DNA of 43,309 nucleotides, taken from the IMG/VR virus record IMGVR_UViG_3300045988_023625, positions 1 through 43,309 of that record, one strand, 5' to 3'. Below, piece after piece: positions 17,849 through 34,772 of this stretch. Every line of letters begins with the position of its first letter. Position 1 is the first letter of the stretch. The translations under genes and the position numbers were made by a program. The stretch is from a virus. The notes beneath the pieces were generated by a model. The model was not told where the DNA came from, made no database searches, and was given only the letters and a program-made list of their open reading frames with translations.

Positions 17849-19279
17849 TTACTCTACCTCCGTTTCTTCCTCGGTCGTCATTTCCTGCATCTTCGGCAGC
17901 GCCGCCTTTGCGGTCGCTTCGTCTTCGTTAAGCCACTTCATGCGGAATTCCCAATCGTTCATGATGCCAGCTTGCAAAAGCTGCATATCGCGGGAAAAGT
18001 CGGTCTGCTTGTCCTCAATGATGCTATCATCAAAGTCGATGGATATTTCCACTTCCTCATTCAGCCCAGCGTTCATGGCCGTGTTGCCCAGCCAAAGCAG
18101 AATGCGGCACAGTTCCACAAGCGCCTGTTCCAGCACAATCTCATGCTTTTTGATGGTGCGGAACATGGTGGAGTTTTCGCTGATAACTTGCGTTGCTGTC
18201 GCGACGCTTCCGCCGTCAAAGCGGTAATAGGTCTCGCCGAAACCGCACTTACTGGACAGTACATTCAGTTGGTCTTGAAGTCCTACATTCAGCTGCTCGG
18301 TTCTTAGTGTCGGGGAAATTGTCTCTACGACGTTTCCTTGCTGCGTATCCTCCGGGAGCAGATAGAAACGCCGGTCATGGTCATCAAGCGTCGGTTCACC
18401 GTCTTCCCACCTTGTGGCGGGAATTTTGACCATCATCATCATCGGGCCGTTTTCGAACTCGTTGACATAGCAGTCATAGGCACAGTCAACGCCGCGCAGA
18501 ACATCAATCGCGTTTGCATACACAGGGATACCAACCGGAAGCAGGTAGTCAAGATTGTTTGCGATGTTCGGTCTGTCGATGACGAACTGCCTCTTGTCGC
18601 TTCCCGTATGTACCACAGGGGGGATTCGCTCAAAGCCCGGAACATCGGTGAGCAGCGCGTCGGCAAGCGTTTCATTTTCGTATCGGTAAATGCTGTTCTC
18701 GATGACGTAAAGTCCGGTTTCGTCTTTCCGGTGAATCTGCAAATACAGATAATTCTTTCCGGCTCGGGTGACTACGCTGTCGAACGCGCATTCTGTGATA
18801 AATCCATTCTGCCAAGCCAGCGGAAAGATGTGCTCAATCGTCACATAGTCCAGCTCGATTCCGGAAACATCACCAGGCACAATCTCGCCGCTTTCGTTGA
18901 CGGCCTGCCCCACCACACGCGGAATGTACGCCACAGTTCCGAGCGCTGACTTCATTTCCTGCATTTCGTTTGCCTTGACCGTGAAGTTGTTCGCTGTCAG
19001 GACGCTATCAACGAACGCCTGTTCTTTCTGCCCTTCAAGTGTGATCTGGACTTTCTCATTCATCAAGAGGTTTGCCCAGTCCTCGCAAACCTTTTTCGCC
19101 ATACCGAGGCTTGCACGGTTGCACTTTGTCCACTTATGCCCGTTATATCGCCGGTATTGATGAAAATCCTTTACTTTCCCAACATACCAAGACTTCCAGA
19201 GGTCAACTTGGCTGTAAAAATCTTCCGGGATTGTCGTATAGCCAAGTTCTTTTAACTTTTGGATAACTGCACTGCTCAT
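17849..19279 (-). CDS. Portal protein (SPP1 Gp6-like)
   Basis: 476 aa, directly after terL with an ATGA overlap. Portal-like sequence throughout and an acidic C-terminus. Confidence 0.85.
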   Translation of the reverse strand: MSSAVIQKLKELGYTTIPEDFYSQVDLWKSWYVGKVKDFHQYRRYNGHKWTKCNRASLGMAKKVCEDWANLLMNEKVQITLEGQKEQAFVDSVLTANNFTVKANEMQEMKSALGTVAYIPRVVGQAVNESGEIVPGDVSGIELDYVTIEHIFPLAWQNGFITECAFDSVVTRAGKNYLYLQIHRKDETGLYVIENSIYRYENETLADALLTDVPGFERIPPVVHTGSDKRQFVIDRPNIANNLDYLLPVGIPVYANAIDVLRGVDCAYDCYVNEFENGPMMMMVKIPATRWEDGEPTLDDHDRRFYLLPEDTQQGNVVETISPTLRTEQLNVGLQDQLNVLSSKCGFGETYYRFDGGSVATATQVISENSTMFRTIKKHEIVLEQALVELCRILLWLGNTAMNAGLNEEVEISIDFDDSIIEDKQTDFSRDMQLLQAGIMNDWEFRMKWLNEDEATAKAALPKMQEMTTEEETEVE

Positions 19280-20517
19280 GCAATAACTCCCATTCTGCGG
19301 CTGACAGGCTCTAATGCATACCTCGTCGCGTCAATCAGGTGGTTGTTCGCGTCAGGGTAGCCGCTAATAATGTCGCCGTCTTTGTTTCTTTCGTATTCGT
19401 ATCCCACGAACTCATTGTAAGCGTGCGGTGTGCGCCGCCTGTCAATGACAATTGTTCTCCGCTGCAAGAACTTCATTCCGTATTCGACCGAGCCAGGTCC
19501 TTTGACCGCTTCATACGCAGGAAGCCCCATTGCACGGAGGTCAGCAACGCTTTTCGGCTCGGCGCTGTCGCAAATCGTCCGAATGTTGCTATATCCACGT
19601 TGCTTAATCATTGTCGCGCTTTGCTCGTTGGATAATTTGTTTTGATAAATCTCGTCTAACAGATATATCTTCTCTCTTGCCCGATCATAATGCAGCCGGA
19701 TAAAAGCAAACGGGTCGGGGAACCAGCCAAAGTCCACCCCCTGACAGATTCGGTCGAAACTTTTGACTTCTTCATCTGTGATCTCCCGCAGTTCCAGCTT
19801 ATCGAACACATTGCCGCCAGTTCCTACCGGAATACCGAGATACTCATGCTGATATGCGCGCTCGTCCGTTTCTTTCAGGTGTTCCGCTTCGGCAAGAAAC
19901 TGTTCTCCCAACCACTCAGGCGGTGCTTGCAGATATGTCGACTTGTGGCAAATCCGGTCAGCGCGCTCTTCCAAACTGTCCTTGTTCGCCCAGTTGTCGC
20001 GCGAGATCGGCGGGTTATAGCTTTCGAAATTCCAGAAAACCGAGCCGCCGCGCATGGTGGACTGCAAAATGTTTCGGATTTCCGCGCGTCCAGCAAACTG
20101 ATCTTTCTCTTCAAAGTGCGTCACGGCAATATAGCCAAACGGCACTTTGATAGACTTGATCTTCATCGGGTCATCAGCGCCACGGAACATGATCTTTTGT
20201 CCTGTCGGCTTGTAGATCAGCTCCATTGGGGAAACCTTTGCTTCCCAATACGCTGCCATGCCCAGCTCGCCGATTGCCCAGATATACTGTGCGTACACGC
20301 TATCGCGGATCGTATTTGCCACCTTGCGCAACACCAGCGCATGTGTGCCGGGATTGGCAACCAGCAGAAGCGGCACGATAATTGATACCGTGGACGATTT
20401 TAGGGAACCGCGCCCGCCGCTAAAATCGTAGTGCGTATGCCCATGATGAAAAATGTCATGAGCAATATCGTAAAACGCAGGTCCGATTTTCTCGGATAAA
20501 CGAATGTCAGACATCAA
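19276..20517 (-). CDS. terL: Terminase large subunit (PBSX/XtmB-type)
   Basis: 413 aa. Walker-A-like GGRGSLKSS, nuclease-domain motifs (VDFGW..DP, NHLIDATRYA). Confidence 0.9.
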   Translation of the reverse strand: MMSDIRLSEKIGPAFYDIAHDIFHHGHTHYDFSGGRGSLKSSTVSIIVPLLLVANPGTHALVLRKVANTIRDSVYAQYIWAIGELGMAAYWEAKVSPMELIYKPTGQKIMFRGADDPMKIKSIKVPFGYIAVTHFEEKDQFAGRAEIRNILQSTMRGGSVFWNFESYNPPISRDNWANKDSLEERADRICHKSTYLQAPPEWLGEQFLAEAEHLKETDERAYQHEYLGIPVGTGGNVFDKLELREITDEEVKSFDRICQGVDFGWFPDPFAFIRLHYDRAREKIYLLDEIYQNKLSNEQSATMIKQRGYSNIRTICDSAEPKSVADLRAMGLPAYEAVKGPGSVEYGMKFLQRRTIVIDRRRTPHAYNEFVGYEYERNKDGDIISGYPDANNHLIDATRYALEPVSRRMGVIA

Positions 20518-20878
20518 TAATCACCTTGACAACGGAATCGGCGCTTGTGTTGTCTTGCTTATCGAACACACCCGTATGCTTCGCCAGCATTTCAAGCGCT
20601 TTTAGCTTATTCGCGTATTTCAAATCGCTTTCCATGCAATCAGACGCAGGCTTGTCTGCGATTTCTTTGAGTTTTTCTATAACATAGTCCTGCGTTACTT
20701 CCGTTCGTTTCTGTCTTTCTGCCTTTGCCTTCTGGATAGCAGCCGAAACGTTACTATTCGTAACTAACTGCCTCCCCTTTTCGGCGTTCTTGTAACCGGC
20801 TCTCGCGGCGGCTTGAGTGGCATTTAAGTCCACAAGGTACTCTTGAACAAATCTCTCTTGCTTTGCTGTTAATGGCAC
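20507..20878 (-). CDS. terS: Terminase small subunit
   Basis: 123 aa. LTAKQERFVQEYLVDLNATQAAARAGY is the classic small-terminase N-terminus. GTG start after a GAGGTGGTGA RBS. Confidence 0.85.
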   Translation of the reverse strand: MPLTAKQERFVQEYLVDLNATQAAARAGYKNAEKGRQLVTNSNVSAAIQKAKAERQKRTEVTQDYVIEKLKEIADKPASDCMESDLKYANKLKALEMLAKHTGVFDKQDNTSADSVVKVIIDV

Positions 20879-20889
20879 TCGTCACCACC

Positions 20890-21570
20890 TCTCTTGTCGC
20901 ATTTTTTTGCTACCAGCCCCCGCCCCTTGGCCTTACATAGCAGACTTTACCCGCCCCGAGGGGCTACAACGCCGCCCACATTGGGCGTTATTTCTTCCAT
21001 TGGCCGTCTTTCTCGCTTAGATTGTCACACGCTACCGGCAACTACGCTCCGAAAAGTCGTAGCCCCTATTCCGTCAGGTCAAACCGGTCTTGACGCATCA
21101 AGACAAGCGCAGTTTTCAGCAAGCATTGTCATTTTCATGTGAGCCATGACGATGGCGGTCTCACATTGTCCGGGCGCTACCCGGCCCATCGTGCAGATGG
21201 TGAGGATTTGCACCTCACATAGCCTAACAGTGTCGGCCTCCACCGCTTTGCTGGGCGGCACCCGAACTGTCGTTTGTAGCGTCTACCTATTCCGCCACAT
21301 CTGCGTATGTCCCCGCTGGGGCACATCGTTGAGAGGTGCGCGGGGTCCTGTGCCGCATGAGAGGTGCGACCTCTCGGCCCTGATCGTGGGCTGCATCGCG
21401 CGTGCGGCATGGTGCGGAAGCGGCGTGAAAAAGATGAAAAAGCACCGCCCCCGCTATGGCGCAGGAGGTACACGCCATAAATGAGAGAACCGCAAAGGCC
21501 TTTACACCTCTGCGGTTCAATCCTCCCATAATTGCAATGCGCTAACTCACTTATAAGTGAGTTTTGCAAA
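20890..21570. ncRNA. Candidate large structured RNA (class unknown; ROOL/GOLLD-like context); strand unresolved
   Basis: A gap of about 700 nt with no credible ORF, in an otherwise gap-free genome. At least 11 perfect 5-8 bp local helices plus long-range pairings and repeated sequence modules. Details are in the findings. Confidence 0.5.
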
Positions 21571-21577
21571 ATATTTT

Positions 21578-21796
21578 TTATAAACTTTTCGGGTAGTCCG
21601 ACCGCCCGAGCAAATAATCAATCGACACTCCGAAATAGTCAGCGATGCTTATCAGCGCGTCCATTGACGGTTTCTGCATCCCCATCTCGTAGCGTTTGAT
21701 CGTGTTGCGGTTCAGCCCGCACAGCTCAGATAACACGCAGCGCTTTAACTGCTGGCGTTCGCGTAACCTCCGCAGGCGGTCAGGAAATGTGCTCAT
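21578..21796 (-). CDS. XRE-family HTH protein (last gene of the early operon)
   Basis: 72 aa: RLRRLRERQQLKRCVLSELCGLNRNTIKRYEMGMQKPSMDALISIADYFGVSIDYLLG. Confidence 0.8.
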   Translation of the reverse strand: MSTFPDRLRRLRERQQLKRCVLSELCGLNRNTIKRYEMGMQKPSMDALISIADYFGVSIDYLLGRSDYPKSL

Positions 21797-22002
21797 ATGC
21801 GCCTCCGCTCTGCTCGAAAAACTTCTTTTGCTCCTTCAATTTCTGCAACTATGTATTCGCTATCAAGATTTACATATTTCACAGTCCCTTGTTTTCGATA
21901 TGTTTTCGCTGCCAAAATAAGACTACTATCGTTTTTCTCTCCCCCGTGAATCGCAATTTGCTTATATACAACTGCGTCACGGTTCAGGCGCTTAGCGTCC
22001 AT
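21793..22002 (-). CDS. Hypothetical protein
   Basis: 69-aa ORF. Its stop overlaps the next start (ATGA). Confidence 0.55.
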   Translation of the reverse strand: MDAKRLNRDAVVYKQIAIHGGEKNDSSLILAAKTYRKQGTVKYVNLDSEYIVAEIEGAKEVFRAERRRI

Positions 22003-22049
22003 CTTTTCCCCCTTTTTGTTTTAACTCACAGCGGGTAATAATGATTCAC

Positions 22050-22739
22050 TTACTCACGGCCAATCTTCCTCTTCACCCACGCCCACAGATTCCGCCACGG
22101 GTGGGCTTCTGCGTAATTGGCGCGCTGCTCGGCGTTGTAGCGCCTGTTACGCATTACATTAAGGGCCTCTTGCTTAAAAGCGCACTCGCCATTCGCTCGC
22201 CTAAGTGCCACCTCCGCGTCATCGAGTTTGTTTTTCAAGTCGGCAACTTCTCGCTTTGATTCCTGCCACGCTCTCCAATACTGCTGCCCCTGATCGTTCA
22301 AATACTGAGCCGAGTTTTTGGCTGAATCTAAGTCCGCTTTCAGGTTTGCGATCGCGTTCTCTCGGGTGATGGCTTCTCCGTTCATCTGGCTGATCTGCTC
22401 GGTCAAAACGGCATTCTTTCGTTGCATCTCCGCCTTTAATTTCGCATATTTAGCAATCAGATCGTTCTTCTTGTCGATGCAGTTTTTCAGCTCGGCGATT
22501 TCCGCTTCAAGCGCCGTGACTTCCGCCTGCACCTCCTGCGCCTTCCCCAGCGGGCAGTAGAAAAGGCAGTTGTGCTTGCTCGCGTCCCGCAGGATCGCTC
22601 TATGTACCGCCTTGCCGCTCTTGTCGAATCGCAGCTCATAACCCTCGGGGTAATATTCGATCCCGGCGTACAGCACCTTTGGCTTGTCCTTTTTCACCGC
22701 CGCCTGCACGCACAGGTCTAAAAATGTGCTTCGTTTCAT
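22050..22739 (-). CDS. Coiled-coil hypothetical protein
   Basis: Start MKRSTFLD at 22739, overlapping the upstream stop. Long heptad-like central region. Confidence 0.6.
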   Translation of the reverse strand: MKRSTFLDLCVQAAVKKDKPKVLYAGIEYYPEGYELRFDKSGKAVHRAILRDASKHNCLFYCPLGKAQEVQAEVTALEAEIAELKNCIDKKNDLIAKYAKLKAEMQRKNAVLTEQISQMNGEAITRENAIANLKADLDSAKNSAQYLNDQGQQYWRAWQESKREVADLKNKLDDAEVALRRANGECAFKQEALNVMRNRRYNAEQRANYAEAHPWRNLWAWVKRKIGRE

Positions 22740-33761: not shown

Positions 33762-34772
33762 ATGCCAATTACCGTATATTTTGAGCACGGCCGCGTTGCG
33801 GAGTTGTTTCCAGAACCAAATCAATCGTATTATGACGTGCGCGATAAGATCAACGCGGCGACTGATATAGTGTCTGATGGAATAAAATACGATTTGACCG
33901 ATAAGCAATCGATTTATTCTATCGCCATTCCTGACTATACAAAAGTACGCAATGTACCCCCTTCAAAAGAATTAGGCCCAACAGGGTATCTTGAATATGT
34001 GTTGAGAATGCACGCTGGTTTTCTGTGGAATGCCGGAGATTACCAGCTATCAATGGCATGCCTTGAAAAATCTTGCCAGTTGATGACATATTCCACTCTC
34101 GGGTGGGAGAGAAAAGACTTTTATAGGGTCGTCAACTATTACATTGAGTTAGGGCGATTCAAAAAAGCAAAAGAGTGGAAAGACTGGATAGATAACCACA
34201 CGGAATCTCCGGAAGACTATGCAAAAGACGCATTTGCAAGAACGCTTGAATCGTGTAAAAGACTTAAAACTGATTTAGTAGAGGTTGGCGATTCAAACGC
34301 GTGCTGTGAAATTTGCGCGAAGTACCGGAGACGAATATATAGCTTATCTGGGAAAAGTTGGAAGTTCCCAAAGTTTCCAGATGATTTCCATTTTCAATGT
34401 GCTCTTGGGATATTTGCCTATATTGATGGTGTTTCCGAGCCGTCTTTCAAATGCATTAGTCCATCTCTGTATAGCAAACGACCATTTCGCGATGATCGAA
34501 CAGAAGAAGAAAAGGAAAATTATAGACTTTGGTTAGAACGTGTTGAAAAGTCTTATAATCCGATCAATGAGCCGAATCTAAATCATATTATTTATTATTG
34601 GTTCAAGCCTAAATTCCCCGACGACTTCCCAAAATCTCTTTCTGGCTTTTCTCGCATGCGAAACGGTAACACAGCAAATTATCAAAAGCTGGCACAGAAG
34701 ATTGAGGATGCGGGGTATACCATACCTAAATCATTAAATGAGGTCGCAGAATGGGAAGAGCGGGAGAATTGA
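33762..34772 (+). CDS. Orphan 336-aa protein in the lysogeny module (function unknown)
   Basis: Clearly more AT-rich than the rest of the genome by eye. Cys cluster NACCEICAKYRRR...FHFQC. The motif PKFPDDF occurs twice. I recognise no family. Confidence 0.75.
   Translation: MPITVYFEHGRVAELFPEPNQSYYDVRDKINAATDIVSDGIKYDLTDKQSIYSIAIPDYTKVRNVPPSKELGPTGYLEYVLRMHAGFLWNAGDYQLSMACLEKSCQLMTYSTLGWERKDFYRVVNYYIELGRFKKAKEWKDWIDNHTESPEDYAKDAFARTLESCKRLKTDLVEVGDSNACCEICAKYRRRIYSLSGKSWKFPKFPDDFHFQCALGIFAYIDGVSEPSFKCISPSLYSKRPFRDDRTEEEKENYRLWLERVEKSYNPINEPNLNHIIYYWFKPKFPDDFPKSLSGFSRMRNGNTANYQKLAQKIEDAGYTIPKSLNEVAEWEEREN

Follow-up and report, generated by a model that had tools for sequence, protein, structure and literature searches.

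AbiF is a widespread abortive-infection toxin and the proposed ancestor of Cas13, and to our knowledge it is largely unknown how phages escape it. RNAs that carry the abiF motif (Rfam RF03085), the antitoxins of type III AbiF/Abi_2 toxin-antitoxin systems such as RCd22 of C. difficile and PbAbiFr, bind AbiF directly and neutralize it in cis and in trans, and RCd22 requires two such motifs (PMC12373285). Phage antitoxin mimics are known to defeat the ToxIN system (PMC13064643), and pseudo-ToxI of phage PhiTE is described as a phage-encoded RNA antitoxin mimic against ToxIN (Blower et al., 2012, as cited in PMC13064643). Furthermore, a hairpin in the cos region of the lactococcal phage sk1 was reported to inhibit AbiF (Rince et al., 2000, and Zilberzwige-Tal et al., 2025, both as described in PMC13064643). 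We analyzed a 43,309-nucleotide (nt) stretch of viral DNA, IMG/VR record IMGVR_UViG_3300045988_023625 (hereafter the window), with a focus on the gap 20879-21577 between a helix-turn-helix (HTH) gene, the last of the early genes, and terS, the gene of the small terminase subunit. On its minus strand this gap carries a hairpin that is an orphan homologue of the AbiF/Abi_2 RNA antitoxin, followed by a tRNA-Leu-like RNA. The best supported description of the gap as a whole is an accessory island of small, swappable minus-strand RNA genes, and not a single giant RNA.

The hairpin shares with the abiF motif its geometry, the 13-nt loop core, covarying stems and the flanks ACAGGA and ACAU. It is built from a 6-base-pair (bp) outer stem, one nucleotide, a 3-bp inner stem, an 11-nt loop (CUCUCAACGAU) and a 5-nt bulge on the 3' side. 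Its 13-nt loop core CCUCUCAACGAUG equals the Rfam abiF consensus without any difference, and the unpaired flanks read ACAGGA (21351-21346) and ACAUAC (21310-21305), with ACAGGA and ACAU being common to the native copies. A search with cmscan matched RF03085 at 21345..21310 on the minus strand over model positions 1-37 (22.4 bits). Among about 39 copies in relatives of the phage the loop is fixed, A to G and C to U being the sole variants, while the outer stem is found in the compensatory versions CCCCGC/GCGGGG, CUCCCC/GGGGAG, CCCUCC/GGAGGG and CCACGC/GCGUGG. We also scanned viral contigs for the loop together with a loose 3' stem. This returned at least 120 loci, nearly all of which form the same two-stem hairpin with covariation in both stems. 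We then aligned 24 equal-length hairpins from unrelated phages (alignment A3). Here, 95.8% of the cells were paired, 27 cells were altered on both sides and the covariation score was matched by none of 500 shuffles. A covariance model built from these 24 sequences (R1), whose training set was picked by loop sequence so that only stems and geometry count as independent evidence, recovered the window hairpin with 29.1 bits (E=7e-4, whole window, both strands). The hairpin was aligned over positions 1-36 with all pairs standard, and the runner-up match reached 13 bits.

Native copies of this RNA were collected by scanning one genome per species for CACCTCTCAACGATGTG, with at least 120 loci being listed. 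A hairpin is formed by 104 of 120 listed genome loci, which belong mostly to Lachnospiraceae, Oscillospiraceae and other Clostridia. An open reading frame (ORF) of at least 150 amino acids (aa) follows in 60 of the listed loci, and 38 of these carry the AbiD/F N-terminal signature YYRLSAYFLPF. Most signature ORFs, with a length of about 285 aa, begin 38-59 nt past the hairpin; a Pfam scan of three of them identified Abi_2 (PF07751) in all three (E 1e-47 to 1e-55). The native locus consists of a sigma-A-type promoter, AACAGGA, the hairpin, ACAUUUUUUU (ACAU and a U-run), a ribosome-binding site and abiF, in this order. Over 45 nt, the window hairpin with its flanks is 87-93% identical to native copies upstream of Abi_2 genes of gut Clostridia, and R1 scores overlap, with 25-38 bits for native and 19-31 bits for phage copies.

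The phage copy lacks both an Abi_2 gene and a promoter directly upstream, and a tRNA-like gene takes the place of the U-tract terminator. A hidden Markov model (HMM) of AbiF built from 33 proteins found no match in the six-frame translation of the 43-kb window, and neither Pfam nor PADLOC scans of 26 window ORFs revealed Abi_2. The hairpin is hence an orphan: it does not precede an Abi_2/AbiF gene but the tRNA-like RNA. When the AbiF HMM was applied to the loci L001-L202, one match was obtained, in L146. Among these loci, this contig is the sole one in which the hairpin (about 2559-2642) occurs together with an Abi_2 homologue (HMM E = 4e-131), and it represents a complete phage-borne AbiF system. 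In the literature searched we found no description of orphan phage abiF RNAs or of the tRNA-Leu-like class described below.

The 113-nt tRNA-Leu-like RNA has a 7-bp acceptor-like stem (21304-21298 with 21199-21193, GCAGAUG/CAUCUGC), U8 and a D arm (GGCGGAAUAGGUAGACGC) with G18 and G19. Written out, it reads GCAGAUG, UG, GCGGAAUAGGUAGACGC, about 60 nt, AUG-UGAGG-UGCAAAU-CCUCA-C, CAUCUGC and A. An extended hairpin of about 50 nt replaces the anticodon and variable arms; the element lacks an anticodon arm and is unable to decode. The T stem comprises 6 bp and its loop UGCAAAU retains C56 and A58 with a G in place of U55, a loop sequence that is invariant across the class. The discriminator is A at 21192, and CCA is not encoded. 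ARAGORN called no tRNA in the window and none among the class members, and the Rfam tRNA model (RF00005) gave no match to the element at E<=10.

A gapped D-loop/T-loop pattern search in viral contigs yielded at least 120 loci of this type with at least 113 distinct sequences. In 20 class loci scanned with Rfam, not a single match fell on the tRNA-like element. The terminal 7-bp stem, although its sequence varies widely, pairs completely in 93 of 113 distinct sequences. For a core alignment of 60 sequences the insert was swapped for a fixed linker that served only for counting; 98.3% of the cells were paired, 11 of 13 pairs were altered on both sides and covariation was 0.859 compared to 0.194 in shuffles. 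The D and T loops are invariant in the class, and the insert of 45-75 nt has no common motif. Class members lie 200-250 nt downstream of ArpU/RinA and about 570 nt upstream of HNH-terS-terL, on the same strand. They are present, unannotated, in the Lactobacillus plantarum phages phiJL-1, LP65, ATCC 8014-B2 and Sha1. Rfam 15 does not contain this class, which we regard as a candidate new RNA family. Among the matches listed, the copies nearest to that of the window (L331 and L344) are followed by drum RNA (RF02958; L331:3449-3554, L344:230-335) and tRNAs. In both of them (L331:3231-3322, L344:13-104) the loop of the insert hairpin, CCUCUCAAAUG, resembles the abiF loop. This concerns two of 113 inserts and hints that inserts might present antitoxin-like loops.

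Stable RNAs that resemble tRNA without decoding have precedents. The T4 tRNA cluster has the stable tRNA-like RNAs known as species 1 and 2. Bacterial Y RNAs of the YrlA type are circularly permuted compared to tRNA and are encoded beside Ro60/Rsr (PMC4201824). These RNAs resemble the window element in that they do not decode but retain an acceptor-like stem and the D and T arms of tRNA; RNase P substrates as well as phage-borne RNAs are found among them. Unlike YrlA, the window class has tRNA topology, a Leu-type D-loop, the UGCAAAU T-loop, a 45-75 nt insert and its niche between ArpU/RinA and HNH-terS. The Rfam YrlA model gave no match in the region, and no Ro60-like gene was found among the ORFs scanned, with no search aimed at the TROVE domain.

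The spacing between hairpin and tRNA-like RNA is found elsewhere. In 19 of 87 viral loci outside the window's family, some of which are related to each other, a tRNA begins 31-36 nt after the loop start, that is 6-7 nt after the hairpin. The window matches this spacing, with the loop starting at 21336 and the next gene at 21304 (33 nt). The tRNA after the hairpin is mostly Arg-UCU and heads a tRNA array. Such fusions, in which tRNA-Arg(UCU) is the first in an array of up to 12 genes, occur in unrelated and partly large phages (contigs L085, L087, L103, L116, L126, L139, L158, L166, L167, L171, L177, L189 and L194). A different, GC-rich hairpin of 35 nt, GCAGACACUCNCGGGAUAUCUCGCGGGUGUCUGC, ends 6 nt before tRNA-Gln in six relatives (L012, L021, L022, L026, L030 and L031). 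It is spaced from its tRNA like the abiF hairpin and could be a further decoy or a plain processing hairpin.

We gathered 80 viral contigs via terS, 66 of which have a terS that is 93-99% identical to that of the window. BLAST comparison of the gap with these relatives split it into at least five separable blocks, and the subset of blocks differs even among relatives whose terS is 95-99% identical. On a minus-strand coordinate q (21578 minus the position), the blocks q1-46, q47-275, q392-579 and q610-699 combine differently, and the HTH gene and terS are separated by 354 to 1059 nt. In many relatives the slot holds tRNAs on the terS strand (Gln-UUG, Trp-CCA, Thr-CGU, Ile and Met), in others 68-nt tRNA-like genes whose anticodon arm is shortened. 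The skipping-rope RNA (RF02924) lies in the island of two close relatives (L034:2294-2388 and L008:2395-2489). Indeed, several "orphan" Rfam small RNAs such as skipping-rope and drum share the island niche with tRNAs. The varied block combinations and the swapped cassettes make this site an exchange hot spot for small RNA cassettes.

Phage tRNA clusters can replace or outcompete tRNAs that host nucleases attack, an example being tRNA-Lys of T5, which counters PARIS (PMC11464382). Anti-nuclease phage tRNA clusters are similar to the island in that the relatives' slot has real tRNAs and is hypervariable like an anti-defense locus, but differ from the window element, which has no anticodon arm. 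The 68-nt tRNA-like genes (L004:2231-2299, L007:2420-2488, L041:2483-2551, L056:2116-2184, L057:2266-2334, L064:2267-2335 and others) have the acceptor GCAGACG/CGUCUGC followed by ACCA and normal D and T arms. In these genes the 13-nt stretch CCGCGCCAGGAGG replaces the 17-nt anticodon arm, and they reach about 50 bits with the Rfam tRNA model. The same scaffold occurs elsewhere in relatives in versions of 73-93 nt with unrelated anticodon arms. A further recurrent cassette, M7, is found in L010:2775-2875 and L016:2535-2640 and 3' of module M5 in L054 and L061. It reads GCGGCAUAGG-hairpin-AGACCACAGYGAGUGAC-hairpin-GAAGCGCUAAAGCAGGGCAGGRCUGCAAUGCCGUACC, both hairpins varying in sequence at constant shape, and has no Rfam match.

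These observations led us to favor, with some reservation, the view that the island includes an AbiF antitoxin mimic that is released by RNase P and blocks abortive infection. We infer transcription, processing, AbiF binding and the anti-defense role. The island runs, 5' to 3' on the minus strand, from the terminator and leader hairpins of M1, M2 and M3a through the 35-nt hairpin, the tRNA-Leu-like RNA and M5 to M6 (Table 1), and would be transcribed during infection. Host RNase P would then cut at the 5' end of the tRNA-like RNA and free the antitoxin copy with a 3' end near that of the native RNA. Once transcription of the host has ceased and its own antitoxin is being lost, abundant phage antitoxin could keep AbiF dimers blocked in a host that carries AbiF, and abortive infection would be prevented. 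The tRNA-like RNA may serve at least as a processing and stability handle, and its variable insert may add a second decoy or a small RNA function. The arrangement suggests that phage RNA decoys switch off host defenses.

In concept such a mimic is similar to pseudo-ToxI, since both are phage copies of a host RNA antitoxin without the toxin. They differ in the target (ToxN compared to the HEPN RNase AbiF), in their architecture (tandem 36-nt repeats compared to a single hairpin) and in maturation, which is toxin-driven for pseudo-ToxI and would here be carried out by RNase P. With the sk1 hairpin the window hairpin shares the position just upstream of packaging genes and, as proposed here, action on AbiF. 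However, the sk1 hairpin is described as unlike the AbiF non-coding RNA, whereas the window hairpin is a clear homologue.

Several points weigh against an RNase P-released mimic. The gathering score of RF03085, which is 37, was not reached by the window hairpin. However, the native copies L247, L302 and L211, directly upstream of Abi_2 genes, also stay below it, and the best match among five loci searched (L204, with no Abi_2 ORF found downstream) scored 27.7 bits. Thus, failing the gathering score is not disqualifying, and the threshold excludes a whole subtype. The phage carries one abiF motif compared to two in RCd22; the native Clostridial loci examined also carry one motif each. A promoter scan of 20400-22100 found no sigma-70-like promoter, and hence the predicted transcription must come via read-through or from a promoter type outside the scan. 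RNase P recognition is plausible at most, because the tRNA-like RNA has a G for the near-universal U55 and a 6-bp T stem. Within the window's phage family the hairpin sometimes precedes a non-tRNA cassette, so that RNase P release cannot be the sole maturation route. Furthermore, the modules M2, M5 and M6 fall outside what an antitoxin mimic explains.

A broader version of the antitoxin mimic is possible, but we hold it only tentatively. In many phages of Firmicutes and other hosts, orphan abiF RNAs might be welded to the 5' ends of tRNAs or tRNA-like RNAs and be made by RNase P, and the tRNA-Leu scaffold might be a general phage platform for decoy or guide RNAs. The scaffold, placed between ArpU/RinA and the packaging genes, would then carry the hypervariable 45-75 nt as cargo against host defenses that target RNA.

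The main rival explanation is that hairpin and tRNA-like RNA are processing and stability punctuation in cis of a late-operon leader without any anti-defense role. RNase P/Z cleavage sites and protective hairpins would then separate early from late transcripts. This would agree with the location of the tRNA-like class between ArpU/RinA and HNH-terS-terL on the same strand in many Firmicutes phages, with the hairpins of other sequence 6 nt before tRNAs in relatives and with the lack of a detected promoter of its own. However, punctuation would have no need to keep a 13-nt loop, a bulge and flanks across unrelated phages while the stems covary. Moreover, the hairpin is missing from about half of the close relatives and is hence accessory and not an essential part of a leader. 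We consider punctuation rather unlikely as the full explanation.

Table 1. Features of the gap and of its neighboring genes, with the helices of the initial annotation assigned to modules.
Feature	Coordinates	Strand	Basis and description	Helices of the initial annotation
XRE-type HTH gene	21796..21578	minus	Pfam HTH_3	
M1, palindromic hairpin 21544-21563	21532..21577	minus	sequence; directly after HTH gene stop	21544-21563
M2, three hairpins	21414..21531	minus	conserved 88-95% in 24 distinct relatives	
M2 hairpin A	21518..21487	minus	13 bp; terminator-like call	21487-21518
M2 hairpin B	21479..21455	minus	loop contains CCUCC	21455-21479
M2 hairpin C	~21454..21414	minus	U-rich loop	
M3a	21346..21413	minus	7-bp stem 21409-21403/21357-21351 enclosing hairpin 21375-21359, GAGAGG-UCGCA-CCUCUC	21351-21357/21403-21409 (abiF-neighboring stem)
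abiF-motif hairpin	21345..21311	minus	Rfam RF03085 match, model R1, covariation, native match	
tRNA-Leu-like RNA, 113 nt	21304..21192	minus	sequence and fold; starts six nt after hairpin	21200-21218 (T arm)
M5	20999..21191	minus	alignments and folds; hairpins CCGGG-UAGCG-CCCGG (21184..21170) and UGUGAG...CUCACA (21166..21137), conserved single-stranded tract, variable centre	21170-21184, 21137-21166
Linker, small hairpin CGCCCA-AUG-UGGGCG 20987..20973	20969..20998	minus	sequence; differs between relatives	
M6, 90 nt	20879..20968	minus	ends with A-run, terS ribosome-binding site, GTG start	
terS	20878..20507	minus	Terminase_2	
terL	20517..19276	minus		

The remaining modules surround the hairpin and the tRNA-like RNA. 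In about half of the relatives an alternative version of M1 occupies the same place. The initial annotation had noted that the M1 hairpin is followed by a T-run on the plus strand, and this is correct, the T-run being present on that strand only. M1 may be a bidirectional or antisense terminator; read on the plus strand, it would stop antisense transcripts that run from the RNA island into the early operon. M2 is probably the end of the early transcript together with a leader. L063 and L029 have M2 but no M3, and here M2 directly adjoins a tRNA. M3a, with a mean identity of 92% (alignment A1), is too conserved for a covariation analysis. An exact 11-nt repeat on the minus strand, CGCACCUCUCA, lies at 21330-21340 in the 5' half of the abiF core and at 21358-21368 in M3a. 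The GAGAGG of M3a could pair with either copy of CCUCUC, and an alternative fold that opens the abiF hairpin is possible. We also considered M3a as a second abiF motif, as it has 11 nt in common with the hairpin, but R1 gave no second match.

M5 has a variable multi-hairpin centre that holds the D-loop-like CGGAAUAGG, and a conserved 3' end, GUGUGACAAUCUAAGCGAGAAAGACGG. At least 119 gut viral contigs carry M5, and in each case it directly follows the 3' end of a tRNA, a tRNA-like RNA or another cassette. Other identities were tried for M5 and rejected: 2-nt indels argue against a small ORF, a drum or skipping-rope variant has no Rfam match, and a pac repeat does not agree with its absence from relatives with the same terS.

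M6 is the module that best fits a role at the DNA level. A protein could bind it as part of a pac or late-promoter region; alternatively, M6 could act as a leader RNA. More generally, the conserved blocks, above all M6, might be DNA packaging (pac/cos) or late-promoter sites with only incidental RNA structure. Almost every relative with this terS retains M6, and its 39 distinct variants contain almost no informative change, so it is too conserved to assess covariation. Within 20919-20968 it contains an imperfect direct repeat of 19 nt (UGUAGCCCCUCGGGGCGGG / UGUAAGGCCAAGGGGCGGG), 31 nt apart, which is followed by an A-tract. In some relatives M6 lies about 300 nt from terS or before another gene. 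Small subunits of the Terminase_2 type, for example G1P of SPP1, recognize pac upstream of and within their own gene, which would fit such a site. On the other side, such sites cannot account for the hairpin or the tRNA-like RNA, whose stems covary while their loops are fixed, which is an RNA signature, and relatives that carry the same terS can do without M2, M3 and M5. As an account of the gap, DNA signals are improbable.

The initial annotation had proposed one large RNA of about 700 nt similar to GOLLD or ROOL. The helices on which it was built are real, and most of them lie inside the modules defined here. Structured RNA-gene territory at the boundary of early and late genes is also what we found. 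The minus-strand fold of the gap has -284.6 kcal/mol (z = -4.5) compared to -251.3 kcal/mol (z = -2.6) for the plus strand, each against 20 shuffles. Dense helices with this minus-strand z-score, skipping-rope and drum RNAs among tRNAs in the equivalent island of relatives, the prophage context and the proximity to tRNAs would all be compatible with a large ornate RNA. However, Rfam 15 returned zero matches at gathering score in the whole window, and a scan for ROOL, GOLLD and other large RNAs was negative at gathering score in the window and at E<=10 in the region. The matches to DnaX, snoRNA, JUMPstart and sroH obtained in E-value mode in the region were rejected as noise. In place of one conserved architecture, the relatives show a mosaic of small, independent units. 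The 8-bp long-range pairing that had been suggested between 20960-20967 and 21059-21066 spans a recombination boundary and is unlikely to be functional, because it joins blocks that assort independently in relatives. A single large RNA is thus already contradicted, and we give it almost no weight.

The strand, left open initially, can now be assigned as minus, because every identifiable element (the abiF hairpin, the tRNA-like RNA and the tRNAs of relatives) sits on this strand. For covariation the answer was mixed: stems of the abiF hairpin and of the tRNA-like RNA are supported, and M3a and M6 are too conserved to test. The repeat CCTATTCCG was recovered at 21065-21073 and 21286-21294, as were the other short repeats reported, and is the reverse complement of the tRNA D-loop motif CGGAAUAGG. 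Tandem Repeats Finder detected no tandem repeat in 20800-21650, and thus no array of repeats of about 36 nt as in antitoxins of the ToxI type.

As stated initially, the gap has no credible ORF. It contains only ORFs of 60-130 aa, none of which matches any PHROG family. The five ORFs of this size cross hairpins and are not kept in relatives, due to block swaps and indels of 1-2 nt. An 80-aa ORF (21529..21287) looks conserved, and we rejected a coding reading since it traverses conserved hairpins into the tRNA-like gene and is cut off wherever modules are exchanged. No intact protein gene was found at this position in homologous phages. A decayed protein gene, with gap ORFs that lack PHROG matches and a slot that holds RNA genes in relatives, and a cognate antitoxin of the phage's own toxin, as in C. 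difficile phi027, are both highly improbable: complete phage-borne AbiF systems exist (PMC12373285; L146), but the negative AbiF HMM, Pfam and PADLOC results already contradict an own toxin in the window.

The window represents a temperate phage of about 43 kb with an integrase, a Rha regulator and a CHAP lysin, and the genes that flank the gap are all encoded on the minus strand. Its TerL is closest, among isolated phages, to that of Blautia phage Montmirail (57% identity), followed by Clostridium perfringens phages, and the host is probably a member of the gut Clostridia. A genome scan found one prophage copy, in a metagenome-assembled genome labeled Bacteroidales for which we suspect mis-binning. 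On the opposite strand, a 336-aa ORF (33762-34772, plus) without any match in Pfam or PADLOC adjoins the integrase and an HTH repressor-like gene. Its position is typical for a prophage-expressed accessory (moron or defense) gene.

For genome annotation, the island means that an "empty" intergenic stretch upstream of terS can be an array of small-RNA cassettes missed by tRNA and Rfam scans. The tRNA-Leu-like class occupies a defined genomic niche and has a variable region built in, and the association of hairpin and tRNA suggests why small RNA genes cluster with phage tRNAs. An orphan, sequence-faithful antitoxin copy in phage genomes is a directly testable counter-defense and, after pseudo-ToxI, a candidate second example of natural RNA antitoxin mimicry.

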